A stretch of DNA of 64,000 nucleotides. Origin: a virus. This document shows positions 2,339-53,522 of the stretch, piece by piece. The DNA is taken from the UHGV virus genome UHGV-0120889. One strand, given 5' to 3'. The translations under genes were made by a program, and so were the position numbers. The notes under the pieces are model-generated. The model saw nothing but the letters and a program-made list of their open reading frames with translations, had not been told where the DNA came from and made no database searches. Position 1 is the first letter of the stretch. Every line of letters begins with the position of its first letter.

Positions 2339-3316
2339 TTATTTGTTAGATTCTGCACGTGCACGAGCAAGTGCTTTTGCAACGTTTTCAGCAAGAATTT
2401 CTTCTGCGGATTTTGCAATATCATCCACAACAGGTTCGCCATCATTACCATGTTCAGTGGTGGCAAACTCTTCTTTGGTTTTATGCACCTCTGCTTCCAG
2501 CTCTTCAATTTTTGCTTGAGCTTTCTCCAGCATAGCTACGATAGGTTCGTTAGCTTTTTCCAGCATGAAGTCAACTAGGGTTGCATGATCTTCTTCACCA
2601 ACAAAGCTTAAAGCTTGAGCCTTAGTCAGCATTTTAGCTTTTTCAACTTCAACCTGGGCCTTGATGATTTCTTCAGCTTTACTCTGGGTTGCTTTCAGCT
2701 CTTCTACTTGCTTCAGCAGATCCAGATACTCTTTAGTTTTGGTTACGTCCACCGGATTCTCCTCGGTATTTGCGGATTTTGCAACATCATCCACCTCGGC
2801 AGTTTTATCCACCTCAGCAGGTTCCTGTACCGCCTTGATCAGGTTCCCTTCTTTATCGAAGAGATCAGCGGTTACTTGTTCAAAAATCTGTTGTGTTTTT
2901 AACAGGCTGTACTGATCTACCACACTAAGCTGCTTACCTTCTTTTGCAGCTTTATGAATGGTCACGTTATCACAACGCTCTTCCAGCCATGCAATACAAG
3001 ACTCTGCGTCAGCTTGCGCCCATTCCCAATCAGGATGCTCTTTGGCCCAAGCCTCCTCTTCAATCTCAAAACCAAGCATGTGTGCAAGTGCTTTAGCATC
3101 ATCATACCACATATCGAAGAAACGACGCAGGTATTCTTCAAAACTAAGCTCCACAGTAACTTGGCGAAGTGCCTTAACAATATCGTCTGTTAACTGCTCA
3201 GGCTTAAGATCACTCTTCATCAAAAGAGATACAGGTCTGTTGTTAGCGCTATAGCCTTGCGCCTTATGGCACAGGGCAATCCCCTTCTCTTTAATAGTAA
3301 TCGTTTTTTCAGACAT
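2339..3316 (-). CDS. putative scaffolding protein
   Basis: 325 aa, highly charged and Ala/Glu/Lys-rich with predicted coiled-coil character, between portal-side genes and decoration/capsid genes. Confidence 0.45.
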   Translation of the reverse strand: MSEKTITIKEKGIALCHKAQGYSANNRPVSLLMKSDLKPEQLTDDIVKALRQVTVELSFEEYLRRFFDMWYDDAKALAHMLGFEIEEEAWAKEHPDWEWAQADAESCIAWLEERCDNVTIHKAAKEGKQLSVVDQYSLLKTQQIFEQVTADLFDKEGNLIKAVQEPAEVDKTAEVDDVAKSANTEENPVDVTKTKEYLDLLKQVEELKATQSKAEEIIKAQVEVEKAKMLTKAQALSFVGEEDHATLVDFMLEKANEPIVAMLEKAQAKIEELEAEVHKTKEEFATTEHGNDGEPVVDDIAKSAEEILAENVAKALARARAESNK

Positions 3317-3735
3317 TATTCATTGCCCTCTTCTACAACACTGATCCCGAAGTTTACGTTGGTAATTTCACCAGTTTCTTCATCAACATTACCTGTTGCC
3401 TGAATGCTTAGGCCACCAACAATGCCAGCCTTCTTAGCTTCCCATAATTCAGGATTATTGTATTTAACTTTAGCAACCCAAGAGCCAGCCTTGATGACCT
3501 GCTCAGTGCCAATTACTACAACATCAAACTCTTCTTGAATCCACGTCTTTTCAATAGTGAAAGCATCTGTAGAGGTCAAGTGAAAAAGGTTTTCAGAAAC
3601 TAGGCCTGCGGCGTATGCTGCGTCCCAGTTATCTTTAGCCTTTTTGATGGTGTCTTTACTCATCCACTCACCGTGAGCATCTTTAGTGTCAGGCTCGTAG
3701 ATGATTTCGTAGGAAATCATTTCTTCCTGTGGCAT
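3316..3735 (-). CDS. putative head morphogenesis/maturation protein
   Basis: ORF track extends to 3891 and overlaps portal; internal ATG at 3733-3735 (MPQEEMISYEI...) with GGGGAA upstream removes the overlap. Position between portal and scaffold is where head proteases usually sit; function is inference. Confidence 0.35.
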   Translation of the reverse strand: MPQEEMISYEIIYEPDTKDAHGEWMSKDTIKKAKDNWDAAYAAGLVSENLFHLTSTDAFTIEKTWIQEEFDVVVIGTEQVIKAGSWVAKVKYNNPELWEAKKAGIVGGLSIQATGNVDEETGEITNVNFGISVVEEGNE

Positions 3736-3802
3736 CTTATTCCCCATGTGGATTATTTTATCACGCCAAAGGAGGTTTTGCAACCCCCTGTGTTGATAAT
3801 TT

Positions 3803-5359
3803 TTAATTTTCCATGTTGGATATGGAATTATCTCTGGTTGATGACATCTTAGAAGTGCCGTTGCCAGTGGATCCTGCAGCCATTCCATCACCAGCCCTAC
3901 TGATGTCCTGGCCCAAGAGCTTCATCAGCTCTTCCTGATCCATGTCCTCGTCAAATCTTTCATCAAACCCGCCTACTTCAAGAATCTTATTAATTACTGC
4001 AGGAGTTTTTGGCAAGTAACCTACAGCACCGATCCTCTGGACAAACTTGGAGAAGCTCTCCATATCCACTTCTTCAATCAGACCAGGTTTCAGTTTAGGC
4101 ATATCATCATCTTCAAGGATGATACCATTCAATGCCAGAAGCTGCGGAATAAGATCTTTATTGAAGGCCTCAGTGATAATATCTATATCACGCTGAACAA
4201 AATGACCATGGATAGACTGTTTTGACTCAGACAGAGAGAAGGACCCAACGTTATCGTTACCGAGGTTAATAAAGCCAGCACCGAAACGGTCAAGAATCGC
4301 CTTCTTACGGGCATCAATCAAATCTTTAGTGGAATACTGCTTACCCATACCGTCAACCCCCTTCAGGGTCATGGAGTAAAGCTCTTTACCAGACTTATCT
4401 CTATCAGACGGAAGTATAAAGAAACTTTGCTCACCACTATGGGCGTTTGCTGCGTCAAGCATAAGGTCTGCAACCATTCTCCCTTCCATTGAATTCGGGT
4501 CAATGCTGGCCTTGTTCAAAATATTGGAAGGAATTTTCAGCTCAAGCACACCACCAAGGTCTTTGGAACAGCCAACAACCTCAAGGTTTTCAATCAGAAC
4601 TTTCTCACGGAAAGATCTGTAGCAACCTATCATCGGTGACACACCTGCAGGGTTAGATTCTGTTCCTGACAGGGTCATGAGCATAAGCTTTTTAGCAGGG
4701 ATGAAAATTTCAGGCTCATTAAAGCCTTTTGAAGGCATTGCAGCAAGAGGTCCAGCCCAGCGTGCATTCTGAGTGTTTAGAAATGCATTAGGTGATTGAT
4801 AAATACCTGTCAGTGTTCTACTATTCTTGTCAAAGACAAACGGCTCTGATCTGGACAAACTGGCCTGAGGTCGGAATGCAATTTTATCAATAAGAAGCAT
4901 CCCGGCATATTTACCTTCTTTCTCTCTGCGGTATACTTTCTCAAACAGTGAAAAACCATACTCGTTAAAGGTAGCTGCACTTCTTGCAATATCTCGAAGA
5001 GTTTGTTGGTTTGCCAAATTACGCAAAGAATACTCTATAAGCTCGGCAGCTTTCTTAGAGTCTTCACTTTTAACATTATAAAGGATCTTAAAATCATTAA
5101 ATGCTTTCGTGATGAAAACATATTTTGTATCTAAGGCAGTAGCAACTGTGGAATCACATTTCATAGTCTCCACTGTAGCAATCAGCTGAGGCCAACGCAA
5201 TTCCTCAACCATCATAGATTGCGATTCTGCCATAATTTGGGAAAGTGCGCCAGAACCGATCTCACTCATACGAACATTATGAGTTGGTGCGCCTGCGTTC
5301 CCAGATTTATTCACAGTTTTGGCTGTGGCGTTGTGTTTCCTGCGGTTCTTTTTGGACAC
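3803..5359 (-). CDS. portal protein
   Basis: 518 aa ORF immediately downstream of terminase large subunit on same strand; size and position typical of portal. Confidence 0.65.
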   Translation of the reverse strand: MSKKNRRKHNATAKTVNKSGNAGAPTHNVRMSEIGSGALSQIMAESQSMMVEELRWPQLIATVETMKCDSTVATALDTKYVFITKAFNDFKILYNVKSEDSKKAAELIEYSLRNLANQQTLRDIARSAATFNEYGFSLFEKVYRREKEGKYAGMLLIDKIAFRPQASLSRSEPFVFDKNSRTLTGIYQSPNAFLNTQNARWAGPLAAMPSKGFNEPEIFIPAKKLMLMTLSGTESNPAGVSPMIGCYRSFREKVLIENLEVVGCSKDLGGVLELKIPSNILNKASIDPNSMEGRMVADLMLDAANAHSGEQSFFILPSDRDKSGKELYSMTLKGVDGMGKQYSTKDLIDARKKAILDRFGAGFINLGNDNVGSFSLSESKQSIHGHFVQRDIDIITEAFNKDLIPQLLALNGIILEDDDMPKLKPGLIEEVDMESFSKFVQRIGAVGYLPKTPAVINKILEVGGFDERFDEDMDQEELMKLLGQDISRAGDGMAAGSTGNGTSKMSSTRDNSISNMEN

Positions 5360-6583: not shown

Positions 6584-6899
6584 CGTTTATGTTCGGGCAA
6601 GGTCGCTAGTCTTGCCCCGCCATTTTCAGGCAGCTGCATGTCTCCATGCAGACCAGACTATATCTTATAAGCGACAACAACCGCTTATCCTCCCGTTTCG
6701 AATCGCTTGATTCTACGTCTTTCGACTAGTCGTTGAACGTTCATCCTCTCGGATGCTTCGCTGCGGATTATCTAAATTAACACACTGTTACCATACCTTC
6801 GATCTCTCTTCGAAGCCTCTATCATGTTACCATGACAGGTTGGTGGTATTAATAGTAAAGATTTCCCCGCAATTAGGGAGGTTTTACGAGAGCTACAAA
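6584..6899 (-). ncRNA. group I self-splicing intron (ORF-less) in terminase large subunit gene
   Basis: Minus-strand hallmarks in canonical order: exon ends GAGGGU then UAA; internal guide GCUCUC (plus 6888-6893) pairs with exon end; P-like AAUUGCGGGGAAA (plus 6863-6875); R-like GUUCAACGACUA (plus 6723-6738); S-like AAGAUAUAGUC (plus 6656-6666); terminal G at 6584. Confidence 0.7.
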
Positions 6900-6902
6900 T
6901 TA

Positions 6903-7328
6903 ACCCTCATCGAAGCAAACCATGGTGTACTCAAGCCCTTGATGGTTAAGCTTATCTTGTACATACTCCATGTGGCAGTATTTTACAACAGCTCCCTTTT
7001 TGCTTCTATCCCACTTGCCAGTGTTCGGATCAAACCGTGGAAAAATGAACTTATGATCCTTCTCTCTGAACTTTGGCTTAATGTTTTCAGGCAGATCACT
7101 ATAAATAGCTACCGCTTTAGGCCATAGTCCACCCTCACCTTCCAACTGCGGGGTTGTTCTTCGGAACATAACCACAGAGCTGTGGGGGTCATCAATAATT
7201 TTAAGTGGCATCAATTGCAAGAGGAACGACTTGCCAGACCCTGCGGCACCGCCGATTACCAAAATATCTGCATCGTTTTCGAGGATCATCTTCTGCTTTT
7301 CAGAACACGGTCCGTAAATCTTAGACAT
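6903..7328 (-). CDS. terminase large subunit, exon 1 (N-terminal ATPase: Walker A and B)
   Basis: Walker A VIGGAAGSGKSF and Walker B MVCFDEG; frame hits TAA (6900-6902) immediately after the Gly codon, which is the first codon of the intron. Confidence 0.75.
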
Positions 7329-8431: not shown

Positions 8432-8508
8432 TGGTCTCCACGGAGTGATTCGAACACTCGACCTCCTGATCCCAAATCAGGCGCTCTACCAAGCTGAGCT
8501 ACGCGGAG
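8432..8508 (-). tRNA. tRNA-Pro (anticodon UGG)
   Basis: Hand-folded cloverleaf: acceptor CUCCGCG/CGUGGAG, D-arm GCUC..GAGC, anticodon stem CCUGA/UCAGG with loop UUUGGGA, T-arm GAGUG-UUCGAAU-CACUC, encoded CCA. Confidence 0.8.
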
Positions 8509-8519
8509 TATTTATTATT

Positions 8520-8594
8520 TGGTGGCCCTGGGTGGAATTGAACCACCGTCTGGCGATTATGAGTCGCTTGCTTGAACCTTCCAGCTACAGGGCC
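8520..8594 (-). tRNA. tRNA with anticodon CAU (Met or lysidine-modified Ile)
   Basis: Acceptor GGCCCUG/CAGGGCC, anticodon loop CUCAUAA, T-arm GGUGG-UUCAAUU-CCACC, encoded CCA; Met versus Ile2 cannot be told from sequence. Confidence 0.7.
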
Positions 8595-8595
8595 A

Positions 8596-8671
8596 TGGTG
8601 CTGATGGCAGGACTTGAACCTGCAACCTATTGATTACAAATCAATTGCACTACCAATTGTGCTACATCAGC
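8596..8671 (-). tRNA. tRNA-Thr (anticodon UGU)
   Basis: Acceptor GCUGAUG/CAUCAGC, D-arm GCAC..GUGC, anticodon stem AUUGA/UCAAU with loop UUUGUAA, T-arm GCAGG-UUCAAGU-CCUGC, encoded CCA. Confidence 0.8.
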
Positions 8672-8679
8672 AAAAAAGG

Positions 8680-8776
8680 TGCTAGGTGATGGAATCGAAC
8701 CACCTATGTATTCAACGACTACCTCGTCTATTTTCAGGATTAAAAATCCTCGCCCTTGCCAAAGGGCTTACCTAGC
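8680..8776 (-). tRNA. atypical long tRNA-like gene (about 97 nt), anticodon uncertain (candidate UUU) or pseudo-tRNA
   Basis: Perfect 7-bp acceptor GCUAGGU/ACCUAGC, D-arm GCCC-UUUGGCAA-GGGC and T-arm GGUGG-UUCGAUU-CCAUC, but about 30 extra nt between a short AGGA/UCCU stem (loop UUUUUAA) and the T-arm; no encoded CCA. Confidence 0.4.
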
Positions 8777-8874
8777 TCAGTATGTTGACCATGTTGCTAG
8801 TCGGCGATGACGACTGTAACATTTGATAATCCGGTTCTGCTTCCGGCTTTCGCTTAATTACAAGGTCAACAATA

Positions 8875-8965
8875 TGGCTGAGGGTAATGGAATCGAACCA
8901 TCATCGAGTCATCCTCAACGGGACGGTTTTCAAGACCGCTTGAGCACCATTGCTCCCTACCCTCA
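8875..8965 (-). tRNA. tRNA-Ser (anticodon UGA), long variable arm
   Basis: Acceptor UGAGGGU/ACCCUCA, anticodon stem GCGGU/ACCGU with loop CUUGAAA, long variable arm, T-loop UUCGAUU, discriminator G plus CCA. Confidence 0.7.
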
Positions 8966-9079
8966 TTTATAAACAATACTGATAATGACACTGATTTTCG
9001 AGCAGTTAGTGACTAGTATAAACGACGATAAATATCAATGCCATTATCTGTATGATTTATGCATTTAAAACTATAAATT

Positions 9080-9166
9080 TGGTGGGGAGTGGTGGAGTCG
9101 AACCACCCGAGTCGTAATGACAATAGATTTACAGTCTACACCGCTACCTCTACGGGATAACTCCCC
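9080..9166 (-). tRNA. tRNA-Tyr (anticodon GUA), long variable arm
   Basis: Acceptor GGGGAGU/ACUCCCC, anticodon stem GUAGA/UCUAU with loop CUGUAAA, T-arm GGUGG-UUCGACU-CCACC, encoded CCA. Confidence 0.75.
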
Positions 9167-9170
9167 AATT

Positions 9171-9245
9171 TGGCACCCCGTACTGGACTCGAACCAGTGT
9201 CAACGGCTTAGAAGGCCGCTGCTTTATCCACTAAGCTAACAGGGC
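9171..9245 (-). tRNA. tRNA-Arg (anticodon UCU)
   Basis: Acceptor GCCCUGU/ACGGGGU (two G.U), anticodon stem GCGGC/GCCGU with loop CUUCUAA, T-arm ACUGG-UUCGAGU-CCAGU, encoded CCA. Confidence 0.75.
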
Positions 9246-50001: not shown

Positions 50002-50091
50002 ATGAGAACATTGTCCGAAGTTTTAGTGGTGATCCTGATGATCATTACGTCCATAGTGGCTGTTGCCGGAATACTCACGGGTGGAACATGA
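50002..50091 (+). CDS. micro-ORF encoding 29-aa hydrophobic peptide
   Basis: MRTLSEVLVVILMIITSIVAVAGILTGGT; stop overlaps next start (ATGA). Confidence 0.3.
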   Translation: MRTLSEVLVVILMIITSIVAVAGILTGGT

Positions 50092-50300
50092 TAAACACAC
50101 ATGCATCTGAAGAGACATCCAAAGGAGTGACTATATGTCCCTTGACTGAGCCAGTGAAAGAGGAAAACTTCGATTCTGAAGATTCTCCATCTTCGCTCCA
50201 GGTAGATCCTGAGGTTGATGACCTAACGTGGGAGGACATCGTAGATATCTGGTTCTCTATTATGCCTGAGCACGAAGAGTTCAGGGGCGGCAGACTATGA
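50088..50300 (+). CDS. hypothetical acidic protein
   Basis: 70 aa. Confidence 0.35.
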   Translation: MINTHASEETSKGVTICPLTEPVKEENFDSEDSPSSLQVDPEVDDLTWEDIVDIWFSIMPEHEEFRGGRL

Positions 50301-50422
50301 AGCACCGAGCCCACACAGGTTCCTCATGCTAAAGCATGGCCTGAAGAGGCAAACGTGCATAATTCCAGCGTATTGGAACGCATAAAACCCTGTTCACACT
50401 CTCATTTTCCAGAGGAGATTTC

Positions 50423-50638
50423 ATGAAGATAGAAATATTTGGTGGAGCTGACAACACTCGTGGCCTGATTTACCTTGAATTCGAGGAATCATACCTGCCA
50501 GAGGTGTTAAATATAGACTCTGTTGCTGAGGCTTTGGGAGTAAACCCTAAAGAACTCCACTCTTGTGCTGAGATCGATGGTTGGGAAGAGACCATGAACA
50601 TTGATTTCAGTGAAGTAGAGGATGAACCGCTGGACTGA
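50423..50638 (+). CDS. hypothetical small acidic protein (MKIEIFGG...)
   Basis: 71 aa; family-like N-terminus. Confidence 0.4.
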   Translation: MKIEIFGGADNTRGLIYLEFEESYLPEVLNIDSVAEALGVNPKELHSCAEIDGWEETMNIDFSEVEDEPLD

Positions 50639-53102
50639 CACACAATTAGCTGCCCGGCTAAAGTGCTGGAAGCACCTATAACACATCTTTCAACTAAATT
50701 TCCTACCACCACAATCACTTACCTCCCACACATGACTGTTTGCTTGTTTAGTGAGCAGTCATGCCTTGACATTCTTGCCTATCTTGATAAAATTAAGTTC
50801 TTCTCTTTTCTTTTACCGAGTAATTCGGGTTTTCTGTTCTCTTCGGTTTGAAGGGGTATGGAGATACACCTGAGTGAACAGGGTGAACAACCGAACCTTT
50901 GGCTATGGCATTAGCATGGCGAAGCGGACGGGTGACGAAAGAGGGGCCGGAGGACACCAGTCACTGCCATATGATATATGGGTGATAACCTGAAGAGTCT
51001 GAATAAGTGTTTAAGTACCAGTCAGAGGAAAAGGTGAATGGTAGCCGAAGGGGGAGGGGGGTTTCTTGTATCTTTAATTTGTATATTATGTATACACTTG
51101 TAAACCAACACCATCTGAATTTGTTTACCACAGAAAGCGGATAGAGACAAATATTACCTATTAAACTTGAATTATTTATAGAAAATACCACAACACCACT
51201 TAAGTATTTGATTTTACACATAAATCCTACAGATATTCACCCTCCATATTTAACATACTTGTAACATATTCCATACTCTACCTGTCTGATCAATTTCCCC
51301 AACTACACCCACCATATTTTCCCTGTCTGTACCACCCCTGACCCGCCGGGAGTCCCGTCATATCTGGCTTTCCAGCAAATATCACACCCACAAATATCAT
51401 TGCCTGAAGAGGGTTTCATCCCATAATACATGCCTTACCTGAAGAGCGCTTCATACACCACGTAAATTTTTTAATTGACCCCCTCCCCGCCGCCGGAGAG
51501 GTTGTCTTTTCCCACACAGACCTGAAGAGTCAGTCAGAAATATCTGAATGGACCCAATTCTGCCCTGTCATGAGCGGTAGCGACTGGAGTGCTGCCAGGC
51601 GGACGAAATGGGAATACTTCTCATTCTTATAATAATTCTCAAATATCGAGGCAGTGAGGAAAATTAATAGGTGAGGCCGTTCACACAGTGGCACAACATT
51701 TGCAACCTATCTTGTGGGGGTGAATGAGAATACCTATCATTGTGAGAATAGTTATCATTACGGGCAATTTAACATAATACCCATTATGCGCACCACTGGC
51801 GATCCATACAGGGATTGATAACATGAGTTACAGTTTACGCATATAACAATCATATTTCTTACTATTTGTGTGGGATATAGTTAGCAGCCGATAGATTAGA
51901 TATTGACCTGTGGACTTCCAACCATCTAGACGTCTAAACGCCCACACAACAAGGATTATACATACATTACTGAATGTAAACAGGGCCGCAAAAATGCTAC
52001 CATACCAGTTTGTAAATTTTTCATGCAGCACTTGACAAAGAGGAGGAAAACTTGTCTGACATAATGTGACCTAACTGACACAACATGACACTTTTACACA
52101 CCTATTAGTTTACACACTGGATTGTTTACATTCCTGATTGTTCACATGCTAACCATTTACATGATTGACTGTTTACACACCGATAATCAGCCATGCCATT
52201 CGTTTGCATGACAATAATTATACATGACAATAATCGCACTGATTATAATTAGCATGACATAATATAAAAGCAGGGCAACTATTAGCAGATCTATAGTTGC
52301 CTTGCTTGTCATGTCATGATTAACTAAATACAAGGCAACTATGATCTGATTAATAGTTTGCAGACAAACTATCACGGGGGTGATGGTTACTGCTTTTATA
52401 TTATGTCGCGACTCCGTCGCGCCATGCCATTCGTTTGCATAGTTGCCTTATTGTTACAGGTAAAATAATTGTATTGTTAATTATTTCTTATCTTTCTATT
52501 AGTCATCTAATGATTCCAGTTAGTATAGTAACGTACAGTAAACATTAGACGACTAAAGATTTCTCTGCTTATGATAACCTAACGTGACAATTTCAGACTG
52601 TTTACGAAAAATGTTGACACCTGAGCTGATTTATGTTATGCAGTTTACACGAATAATTATTTTATGCAGGTATTGACTATTCCGTTATTCTATGGTTGGA
52701 ATAAATACTTAGCAGACTATAGAATGGTGAGCGTACGTAAATTCTGAGATCTGTCGGCTATAGTTATACTCGATTTTTCACGTAGAACACGCTTTTTGGT
52801 TTGTGTAAGTGTATGACTTATAAAGATTTTTAGTTGTTGACAAGATATTGGAGATGTGCATCAGATTAAATTTTGTGCAATAGCTACATTACGTGCACTT
52901 TTGGAAGAAAAAACGTGTAAAAATGGCCCTGCTACCACACAATGAAAGATTATGCAATAGTTATTTTATATGTATATTTGTACAGTGTGTGGGATTAATG
53001 GCTAGTCAATTATTCCACTTGCCAGGTAGGGCCGTTTATGGTAGGAGAAGAGCAGACAAAAAGAAAGGGGCCTTTAAGCCCCTTGATAATTCAATTAAGA
53101 AA

Positions 53103-53522
53103 TTATAATGATTCGTATATTTCAAAAATCCGATTTGCCAGGTCGTTACGGTAGCGGAATTTTTCATCACGCTTGATCATTAAATCCTTATAGCCGTACT
53201 CTTTAAGCACTTCATTAACTTTATGGCGGCATACCTGCATATTATCTTGAGCGTCACCAATAAATCTGTTGCTATGGTGCATGGCTTTAATTTCTTCTTC
53301 CAGGACCAGGGCAACTATGCGGACCGGATCAAGCTGATAGGCGGTAACATCCATGCGGCATTGTAAACGGCTTTTTACGTCTGCCACCGGATATACTGCA
53401 ACCTCTTCCCCGTCAACATTGACAATAATTAGTTTACCATCGATTTCGAATCCTTTCGCCGCCGGACCGTGACAAAAAGCGTTATCAAAGCTATATGCCG
53501 GATTATTAGATTTAATGTTCAT
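53103..53522 (-). CDS. hypothetical protein
   Basis: 139 aa; first gene of minus-strand block. Confidence 0.4.
   Translation of the reverse strand: MNIKSNNPAYSFDNAFCHGPAAKGFEIDGKLIIVNVDGEEVAVYPVADVKSRLQCRMDVTAYQLDPVRIVALVLEEEIKAMHHSNRFIGDAQDNMQVCRHKVNEVLKEYGYKDLMIKRDEKFRYRNDLANRIFEIYESL

Follow-up and report, generated by a model that had tools for sequence, protein, structure and literature searches.

A non-coding region between the convergent gene blocks of a Vequintavirus is probably its chromosome-end region with a 459-bp direct terminal repeat

Vequintaviruses are a large group of myoviruses that are candidates for therapy and whose packaging signals are uncharacterised. For the genus, a terminal repeat of 459 bp was published (PMC7471380), and 'short terminal redundancies' of 458 bp were reported for the phages EdH4 and HdK5 (PMC6563267). 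For the Mydovirus KPP-1, which belongs to the same subfamily, a direct terminal repeat (DTR) of 514 bp was described on the strength of 2x coverage and of PhageTerm, which predicted T7-like packaging (PMC9862379). On the map of rV5, a grey 'non-coding' box is drawn between genes 163 and 164; its authors described a locus without open reading frames (ORFs) that separates convergent transcription units, with a change of the GC and AT skew at 104425-105475. Bidirectional terminators were expected and not found, the genome was taken as circularly permuted and no function was offered for the locus (PMC3606486). The same locus was analysed here in a window of 64,000 nucleotides of the virus genome UHGV-0120889, where it lies at positions 50640-53100. 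A preliminary description, made from the window alone, had offered four options for this region: a replication origin, a packaging site, a transcription-switch region or a locus for a non-coding RNA (ncRNA). We find that the stretch 51598-52056 is homologous to, and co-extensive with, the end repeats of the phages Gotham and EdH4. The region is very probably the chromosome-end region, i.e. the concatemer junction, of a Vequintavirus with its cis-acting packaging and processing signals. The packaging-site option is thus well supported, as the region holds the DTR together with the two cut sites that are known for the close relatives; the transcription switch applies only loosely, and the origin and the ncRNA were not established. 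This core identity, a 459-bp DTR, is already known for the close relatives, though poorly propagated in the databases and the literature.

With the 2.46-kb region as a query, 122 phage records were matched at 88-96% identity. All of them, also those labelled 'Campylobacter phage', belong to the rV5-like coliphages (genus Vequintavirus), and the source of the window is a Vequintavirus, an rV5-like coliphage (myovirus). In the Gotham record (GenBank MT682716), a repeat_region is annotated at 1-459 and 136567-137025. The first and the last 459 bp are identical within Gotham and within EdH4 (MK327930), and they map exactly to 51598-52056 with 94% identity. The loci of both phages are 93-95% identical to the window and the flanking genes are the same. 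In the window itself the DTR occurs once, as in a circular or concatemer-style sequence. Inside the region, the first or the last base of several records falls on positions that are exactly 459 bp apart. When the DTR alone was used for the search, the records of bov10K2, bov22_2, Pr121LW and EcoIv14a_Aya were found to start exactly at a DTR boundary, in either orientation. In all, one or the other boundary is the exact starting point of at least six records, which come from several laboratories.

The left cut-site context GACTGGAGTGCTGCCA/GGCGGACGAAATGGG is located at 51582-51612 (in the cut-site contexts, the slash marks the boundary), and 51598 corresponds to the first base of the Gotham and EdH4 records. 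The right context, ACTTGACAAAGAGGAGGAAAACTTGTC/TGACAT with a polypurine tract, is located at 52032-52062. Here, 52056 corresponds to the last base of the Gotham and EdH4 records and, in reverse orientation, to the first base of Pr121LW and EcoIv14a_Aya. Conservation and codon positions were examined in a 6.4-kb alignment of 19 genomes, consisting of the window and 18 relatives. The boundaries GTGCTGCCA/GGCGGACG and ACTTGTC/TGACAT are conserved in all 19, and hot-spots of insertion and deletion adjoin the cut contexts at 51550-51590 on the left and at 52063-52250 on the right.

The genes of the plus strand extend from about 13.3 kb to 50638 and those of the minus strand from 64 kb down to 53103, as seen from the ORF layout and the GC skew. 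The gene blocks therefore converge on the region, and 50640-53100 is the gap between them. The region had been described as separating the plus- and minus-strand genes, which holds with the correction that the blocks point towards each other. Since the DTR is at 51598-52056, the stretch 50640-51597 is the non-coding right arm of the genome and 52057-53100 the non-coding left arm. The genes at both genome ends point outward, towards the ends.

The same arrangement was observed in three other lineages of the subfamily. As synteny anchor we used an 87-aa gene adjoining the left arm; the upstream regulator gene was unusable, lying 35 kb from the DTR in KPP-1. The DTR of KPP-1 lies between convergent gene blocks that are about 1.8 kb apart. 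The phages A5-4 and LTH01 have about 70% identity in the adjacent 87-aa protein and show the same layout, so that in all three the DTR or its homologue lies in a convergent gap of 1.8-2.1 kb. The similarity of this gap to KPP-1, A5-4 and LTH01 is nearly nil by blastn, yet its elements recur. Only the core at 51757-51802 in the middle of the DTR, which is conserved across the genera, was found by blastn in the three phages. The left cut context reads GGTGCTA/GACGGACAG in KPP-1 and CTGCTGCCA/GGCATGGC in A5-4. The right end of KPP-1 reads CTTGACAAGGAGAGAGAATTGTGT/T, and in A5-4 a polypurine tract is found about 460 bp from the left boundary.

Rearranged copies of the DTR were seen in two further records. 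In Shigella phage CM1 (MK962749), the locus 3031-4076 is a perfect tandem duplication of the 459-bp DTR together with 64 bp of the adjoining TGACAY array, and the second copy starts exactly at the left boundary of the DTR. In I29 (ON286975), two DTR pieces extend over 1052 bp. Such duplications are either real, having arisen at a physical end of the DNA, or an artefact that recurs in assemblies of genomes with a DTR.

The preliminary description had seen no credible ORF in the region, and this was borne out by the codon positions and the intactness of the reading frames. Both flanking genes have an excess of third-position changes among their variable sites (7/4/29 and 10/6/53 for the three positions). 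The 14 ORFs of at least 40 aa inside the region have a flat pattern (e.g. 16/16/16) and are mostly disrupted in the 18 relatives, which rules out hidden small genes in 50640-53100. The annotators of different genomes have placed different, non-homologous ORFs in the gap. No tRNA or tmRNA was found in the region, and nothing in 50300-53400 reached the gathering score of Rfam 15. The neighbouring genes encode small hypothetical proteins that end at the region, and the nucleotide diversity (pi) is 0.04-0.10 in the coding flanks.

Two of the genes near the region are less regular. The plus-strand ORF 50088-50300 is intact in 17 of the 18 relatives and annotated in several, and its third-position bias is weak (27/23/35), unlike that of the neighbouring genes; it is either of doubtful coding status or evolving fast. 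The 139-aa gene at 53103-53522 on the minus strand, which borders the left arm, is absent in 5 of the 18 relatives (Gotham, EdH4, FV3, VB-EcoM-WM and Alma). The outer edge of the left arm is therefore a site of insertion or deletion.

Both arms carry features that may stop transcription before it reaches the DTR. An intrinsic terminator for the minus-strand block lies at 53065-53084 (minus strand) with an 8-bp G+C-rich stem followed by a T-run, and is also annotated in Gotham, EdH4, Murica and Alma. In the right arm, the plus strand is pyrimidine-rich, i.e. C-rich and G-poor, at 51179-51500 with a GC skew of about -0.6. A pyrimidine-rich stretch had been noticed here before, and we measured a skew of -0.5 to -0.6 over 51150-51400. 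In 78-nt windows, the C/G ratio rises to 7.9 on the right arm, against a genome background with a median of 0.78 and a maximum of 2.29. For leftward transcripts, the ratio is 1.7-2.5 on the first 400 nt of the left arm, and the AT-rich stretch 52460-53060 is C-rich in this direction. The homologous flank is also C-rich in A5-4, LTH01 and KPP-1. A C-rich and G-poor composition is typical of Rho-utilisation (rut) sites. To judge from their base composition, the arms may thus be rut-like zones that stop convergent transcription before the DTR. The transcription switch of the preliminary description can be kept in the sense of a convergent zone where both blocks end, supported by the terminator and the C-rich arms, and has to be given up in the sense of a divergent promoter region.

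All repeat families of the preliminary description were recovered, at numbers far above chance. Several short motif families are enriched in the region and restricted to one arm. CCTGAAG and CAAATATC are found only left of the DTR or just inside it, TGAGAATA is found inside the DTR, and GTTTAC/TGTTKACR, TGACAY, the TGTTTACA arrays, GGCAACTAT and GCCATGCC are found to its right. The motif CCTGAAGAG has 8 copies in the window, where 0.39 are expected, and all are on the plus strand. Three of them lie outside the region and are in-frame Pro-Glu-Glu codons within long ORFs. The four copies reported previously for the region were recovered at 50989, 51403, 51438 and 51521, the ones at 51403 and 51438 being those extended to CCTGAAGAG-N2-YTTCAT. 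The last three (51403-51529, plus strand) are invariant in the 19 genomes. A fifth non-coding copy was observed at 50340, beyond the coordinates of the preliminary description, in the gap between the ORFs 50088-50300 and 50423-50638. CCTGAAG is enriched in the right arm, i.e. left of the DTR (P=1.5e-4). Two CAAATATC boxes lie at 51376-51398 (plus strand) and one more, at 51640, is part of the DTR, giving three copies in the region for 0.12 expected. In KPP-1, A5-4 and LTH01, CAAA(A)TATC boxes occupy the corresponding positions, some 200 bp to the left of the DTR and some 45 bp into it. Likewise, CCTGAAGAG, CCTAAAGAG or CCTGAAG boxes recur left of the DTR in A5-4, LTH01 and KPP-1.

Inside the DTR, the repeats TGAGAATA-N-TATCATT are found at 51609, 51725 and 51743. 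The DTR-internal TGAGAATA-N-(G/C)TTATCA at 51725-51759 is a near-palindrome, and KPP-1 has four copies of a near-palindromic unit, TGATAA-N3-TTATCA, right of its DTR at 4441-4664. Both resemble what we take to be the 7-1-7 consensus of the Fur box.

Right of the DTR, an array of the TGACAY type starts at the first base past the repeat and is followed by an array of (c)tgTTYACR (52057-52177, plus strand). The first has four copies, three exact ones and TGACCT, with a spacing of about 10 bp. The second, of the TGTTTACA type, has six copies at 52093-52177. Five copies at a spacing of 15-16 bp had been counted before; the spacing is correct (16/16/16/15/16), and the count was one short. GTTTAC occurs 10 times in the region for 1.28 expected (P=1e-6). 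The architecture of two arrays is present in 19 of 19 genomes, and the copy number, spacing and sequence are hypervariable. With a pi of 0.26-0.34 and 24-44% gaps (52050-52150), the arrays are the most diverse stretch of the alignment. Scattered, conserved TGTTKACR-like copies continue through the AT-rich left arm (52460-53060), with exact copies at 52599, 52612 and 52835 and near matches at 52642 and 52672. The TTGACA sequences at 52612 and 52838 were considered as sigma-70 promoters and rejected, since they have no acceptable -10 box and fit the TGTTKACR family instead.

The arrays are followed by a multi-hairpin element at 52256-52407. Perfect inverted arms of 18 nt close this element, the GGCAACTAT palindromes lie within it, and the hairpin tail GCGACTCCGTCGC follows. 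The element is flanked by the direct repeats GCCATGCCATTCGTTTGCAT at 52190-52209 and 52421-52440. The presence of this repeat had been recognised, with a length of 19 instead of 20 bp and coordinates that were 3-4 bp off. GGCAACTAT occurs in both orientations, as described, at 52274(+), 52293(-), 52334(+) and 52439(-), and its six copies in the window compare with 0.47 expected. The stretch 52250-52450 with the palindromes and the 20-bp repeats is well conserved (pi 0.03-0.07). In KPP-1, A5-4 and LTH01, the strongest inverted repeat of the gap is likewise found right of the DTR, at a distance of 200-310 bp in all gaps and of 217-308 bp in those three. The stems are perfect and differ in sequence; their length is 18 nt in the window, 21 nt in KPP-1 and 16 nt in both A5-4 and LTH01. 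The stem-closed element is followed by a conserved tail, GTC/GC..TCGCGCCAY. These comparisons show that the stem is under compensatory evolution, with selection for pairing, which may act at the level of the RNA or of the DNA. In FV3 (NC_019517), the stem-closed element (aligned to 52250-52420) is missing and its left arm has no inverted repeat of at least 12 nt. FV3 is thus a natural deletion mutant of this element.

Taken together, these elements can be arranged into a pathway. Replication would generate concatemers with one copy of the DTR between the genome units, as in the T7-type DTR phages. The terminase would recognise the cis signals around the junction and make the ends at CCA/GGCGGAC on the left and TTGTC/TGACA on the right, with duplication of the DTR. 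Candidate binding sites are the boxes specific for each arm, CCTGAAGAG and CAAATATC on the left and the TGACAY and TGTTTACA arrays and the stem-closed element on the right, and also the core in the middle of the DTR. These conserved boxes may be read by the terminase or by accessory proteins as recognition or processing signals. The C-rich, G-poor arms and the intrinsic terminator could keep the convergent transcription out of the junction. A sigma-70 promoter at 50766 may drive a purine-rich transcript of 261 nt towards the junction, possibly as an ncRNA or for a transcription-coupled step of replication or DTR processing.

This promoter, at 50766-50793 on the plus strand, is of the sigma-70 type with TTGACA, a 16-nt spacer and the extended -10 box TGnTAAAAT, and it matches 11 of the 12 consensus positions plus the TG. 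It faces the DTR, yet C-rich rut-like DNA intervenes. Its hexamers are conserved in the 19 genomes, and the spacer differs in length and sequence in L009, the most divergent of them. The promoter is followed by a near-invariant, purine-rich block of 261 nt (50804-51064, plus strand), a candidate ncRNA or R-loop element. The block has 97.5-99.7% identity in about 118 records, all vequintaviruses, and a pi of 0-0.035 that falls to 0.000 over 50800-50850 and 51000-51050. Its conservation starts just past the -10 box and stops sharply after GGGGGGTT / GGGGGAGGGGGGTT. The block contains the hairpin CCGAGTAATTCGG (50816-50828) and the CCTGAAGAG copy at 50989, ends in G5AG6 (51051-51062) and has a C/G ratio of 0.3-0.57, bracketed by C-rich stretches. 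The GC-rich stretch pointed out previously was confirmed, with 54-56% GC at 50850-51000. The invariant block was not found in KPP-1, A5-4, LTH01, other phages, E. coli genomes or Rfam, and in IMG/VR a single contig has it, which is a vequintavirus. The block looks like a discrete transcription unit. It may act as an ncRNA, as an R-loop primer or as a site at the level of the DNA, or it may be a segment that was swept recently. Since the other genera use the same DTR system without the block, it is probably no core component of the machinery that processes the ends.

The block and its promoter could be a genus-specific ncRNA gene unrelated to the genome ends, for instance with a regulatory or anti-defence function. 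This is a serious possibility, somewhat short of an even chance, and it is compatible with a chromosome-end region. It is favoured by the promoter hexamers, which are kept while the spacer varies, by the conservation from just past the -10 box to the G-tract with a diversity below that of the flanking genes, and by the G-rich transcript between rut-like C-rich stretches, as expected of a discrete unit. Of the 11 variable columns of the block, 6 are predicted to be unpaired, 3 retain their pair through wobble, and the 2 that disrupt a pair come from a single genome. A functional ncRNA has been described before in an rV5-like phage, namely pseudo-ToxI of PhiTE (PMC3475682). Pseudo-ToxI was also considered as the equivalent locus and rejected, since it lies within a plus-strand cluster near tRNAs and the terminase gene and not in a convergent gap. 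Speaking against an ncRNA gene, the block has no Rfam match even at E≤5, where the region gives four chance-level matches, none of them in the block. Its folding energy is no better than that of shuffled sequences (z=-0.66), and none of the 87 pairs predicted by RNAalifold has a two-sided compensatory change, because the sequences are 98% identical. In addition, a terminator-like hairpin lies about 20 nt downstream of the predicted start, and the near-identity could reflect a recent sweep or a function at the DNA level. The ncRNA option of the preliminary description thus gained a candidate with a conserved promoter, and Rfam and covariation gave it no support. A CsrB-like GGA decoy was also tried for the block and rejected, as GGA motifs are no commoner than the composition predicts (counted by eye). 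We tentatively propose that the block encodes an undescribed Vequintavirus-specific RNA, either an ncRNA or an R-loop primer, and, separately, that the stem-closed element is a conserved end signal of the Vequintavirinae.

Alternatively, 52057-52460 in the left arm could be an origin of the iteron type, where the TGTTTACA repeats bind an initiator beside an AT-rich unwinding stretch and cruciform inverted repeats. The six direct repeats with their 15-16-bp spacing are indeed followed by a stretch of 31-33% GC (52150-52300), compared to about 43% in the genome, and by long inverted repeats. The enrichment of the motif family is significant, variants resembling DnaA boxes occur in the window (TTGTTCACA) and in L009 (TTATCCACG), and the stem of the closed element is kept by compensatory change across the genera. 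We nevertheless regard such an origin as unlikely. The array is the most variable part of the alignment among genomes that are otherwise 90-96% identical, and KPP-1 and A5-4 have different repeats at this place. Strict DnaA boxes (TTWTNCACA) occur twice in the region for 0.28 expected, with none in the core of the array, and this count does not support the iterons as DnaA boxes. The array has no initiator gene next to it, the inverted-repeat element is missing from FV3, and the turn of the GC skew is explained by the change in gene orientation, as the rV5 authors noted (PMC3606486). The origin option was therefore not upheld, the iteron array being hypervariable among near-identical genomes and strict DnaA boxes not being convincingly enriched.

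A further possibility, which we consider improbable, is that the purine-rich transcript ending in G5AG6 forms a persistent RNA-DNA hybrid and primes DNA synthesis towards or through the DTR, as a transcription-activated origin or as a step of DTR duplication. This would be in line with the strong, conserved promoter that faces the DTR from about 830 bp upstream and with the terminal G5AG6 that is followed by AT-rich DNA of 26-32% GC. In KPP-1 (C6TTC5) as well as in A5-4 and LTH01 (G5AG5AG5), a G/C tract is found no more than about 150 bp from the left cut, and T7 requires both an origin and transcription at the junction for its packaging. Such a primer would presumably resemble T7 phiOR, the RNA II of ColE1 or the mitochondrial CSBII. 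Against it, the absence of the block from other genera with the same DTR system argues against a core role, and the orientation and the position of the G/C tract differ between the genera. To our knowledge, the host RNA polymerase does not terminate at such tracts.

The last alternative, a circularly permuted genome with headful packaging in which the region is a spacer or terminator zone with decaying repeats between convergent operons, agrees with the rV5 paper, with a 2026 report based on PhageTerm and with the arbitrary opening of most deposited records, but is very improbable in view of the identical 459-bp end repeats in two independently sequenced genomes, the coinciding record ends of further laboratories, the short terminal repeats explicitly published, and a region that is in large part as conserved as genes or more so and shares boxes across genera, which is unexpected for a spacer.

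Several points weigh against a chromosome-end region with fixed ends. The ends were mapped in relatives of the present phage. For vequintaviruses, the rV5 paper took the genome as circularly permuted (PMC3606486) and the 2026 paper inferred headful packaging from PhageTerm (PMC13211470); PhiTE and PVP-SE1, which are more distant members of the subfamily, were also reported to be circularly permuted. Since the arrays are hypervariable and FV3 does without the stem-closed element, neither can be strictly indispensable as it now stands. The boxes and arrays are candidate recognition or processing sites, proposed from their conservation and enrichment. The likeness to T7 is one of architecture, without sequence homology. 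The literature itself is in conflict, with permuted or headful genomes in PMC3606486 and PMC13211470 and fixed ends with repeats of 458 or 459 bp in PMC6563267 and PMC7471380.

If 51598-52056 is the DTR, it gives the true ends for about 120 deposited vequintavirus genomes that were mostly opened arbitrarily. Recognising it explains assembly breaks and duplications and warns annotators off ORF calls in the 2.4-kb stretch. The set of boxes that is found at both cut sites across the genera offers candidates for terminase recognition, and, of all the elements, only the invariant, promoter-driven block could prove new.

Some observations concern the records and the window in general. The 19 public records MG0656xx named 'Campylobacter phage' are 88-94% identical to the coliphage window across the region. 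NCBI places them in Vequintavirus, and the record C7 among them is marked UNVERIFIED; their host labels are probably wrong. Elsewhere in the window, a group I catalytic intron was found at 6634-6912 on the minus strand (RF00028, 84 bits, full-length match to the model). A cluster of seven tRNAs lies at 8432-9245 on the minus strand, and one of them (8678-8776) is a 99-nt 'tRNA-???' to which ARAGORN assigned a four-base anticodon and which is weak in Rfam (35.5 bits).

Compared to known systems, the repeats of the left arm share with the iteron origins of lambda, P1 and the F plasmid the direct repeats, the AT-rich stretch and the inverted repeats. In contrast to these origins, they are short, out of helical phase at 15-16 bp, not conserved, and have neither an initiator gene nor a cluster of DnaA boxes. 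The R sites of lambda cosB and the pac hexamers of P1 are arrays of terminase-binding repeats next to the cut sites. The arrays described here resemble them as short direct repeats beside the cut site, on the packaged side. Unlike them, they are hypervariable between close relatives, and are only candidates for binding.

The architecture matches that of the concatemer junction of T7 and T3, with a short, exact DTR and fixed ends (as known from the relatives), flanking non-coding repeat arrays and a promoter facing the junction. In T7, short-repeat arrays, SRL and SRR, presumably lie on both sides of the terminal repeat; they were reportedly described by Dunn and Studier in 1983. Plasmids or phagemids have to carry an origin, a pac site and the terminal repeat to be packaged by T7, as stated in PMC13236587 with reference to Chung & Hinkle 1990, and pausing of the RNA polymerase at the junction is also required. 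In contrast to T7 and T3, the present phage is a 137-kb myovirus that has no phage RNA polymerase and uses the sigma-70 promoters of the host, and its repeat has 459 bp instead of about 160-230 bp. Its genes point outward to the ends, whereas the early genes of T7 read inward from the left end. With Gotham, EdH4 and HdK5, it shares a homologous DTR of the same 459-bp extent, with the same boundary sequences and flanking genes. The literature on the DTR of these relatives gives its length only, and the flanking arrays, the boxes and the invariant block were not found described in the papers. To the known repeat of these phages, our analysis adds the dissection of the conserved cis elements and one invariant element that is specific for the genus.

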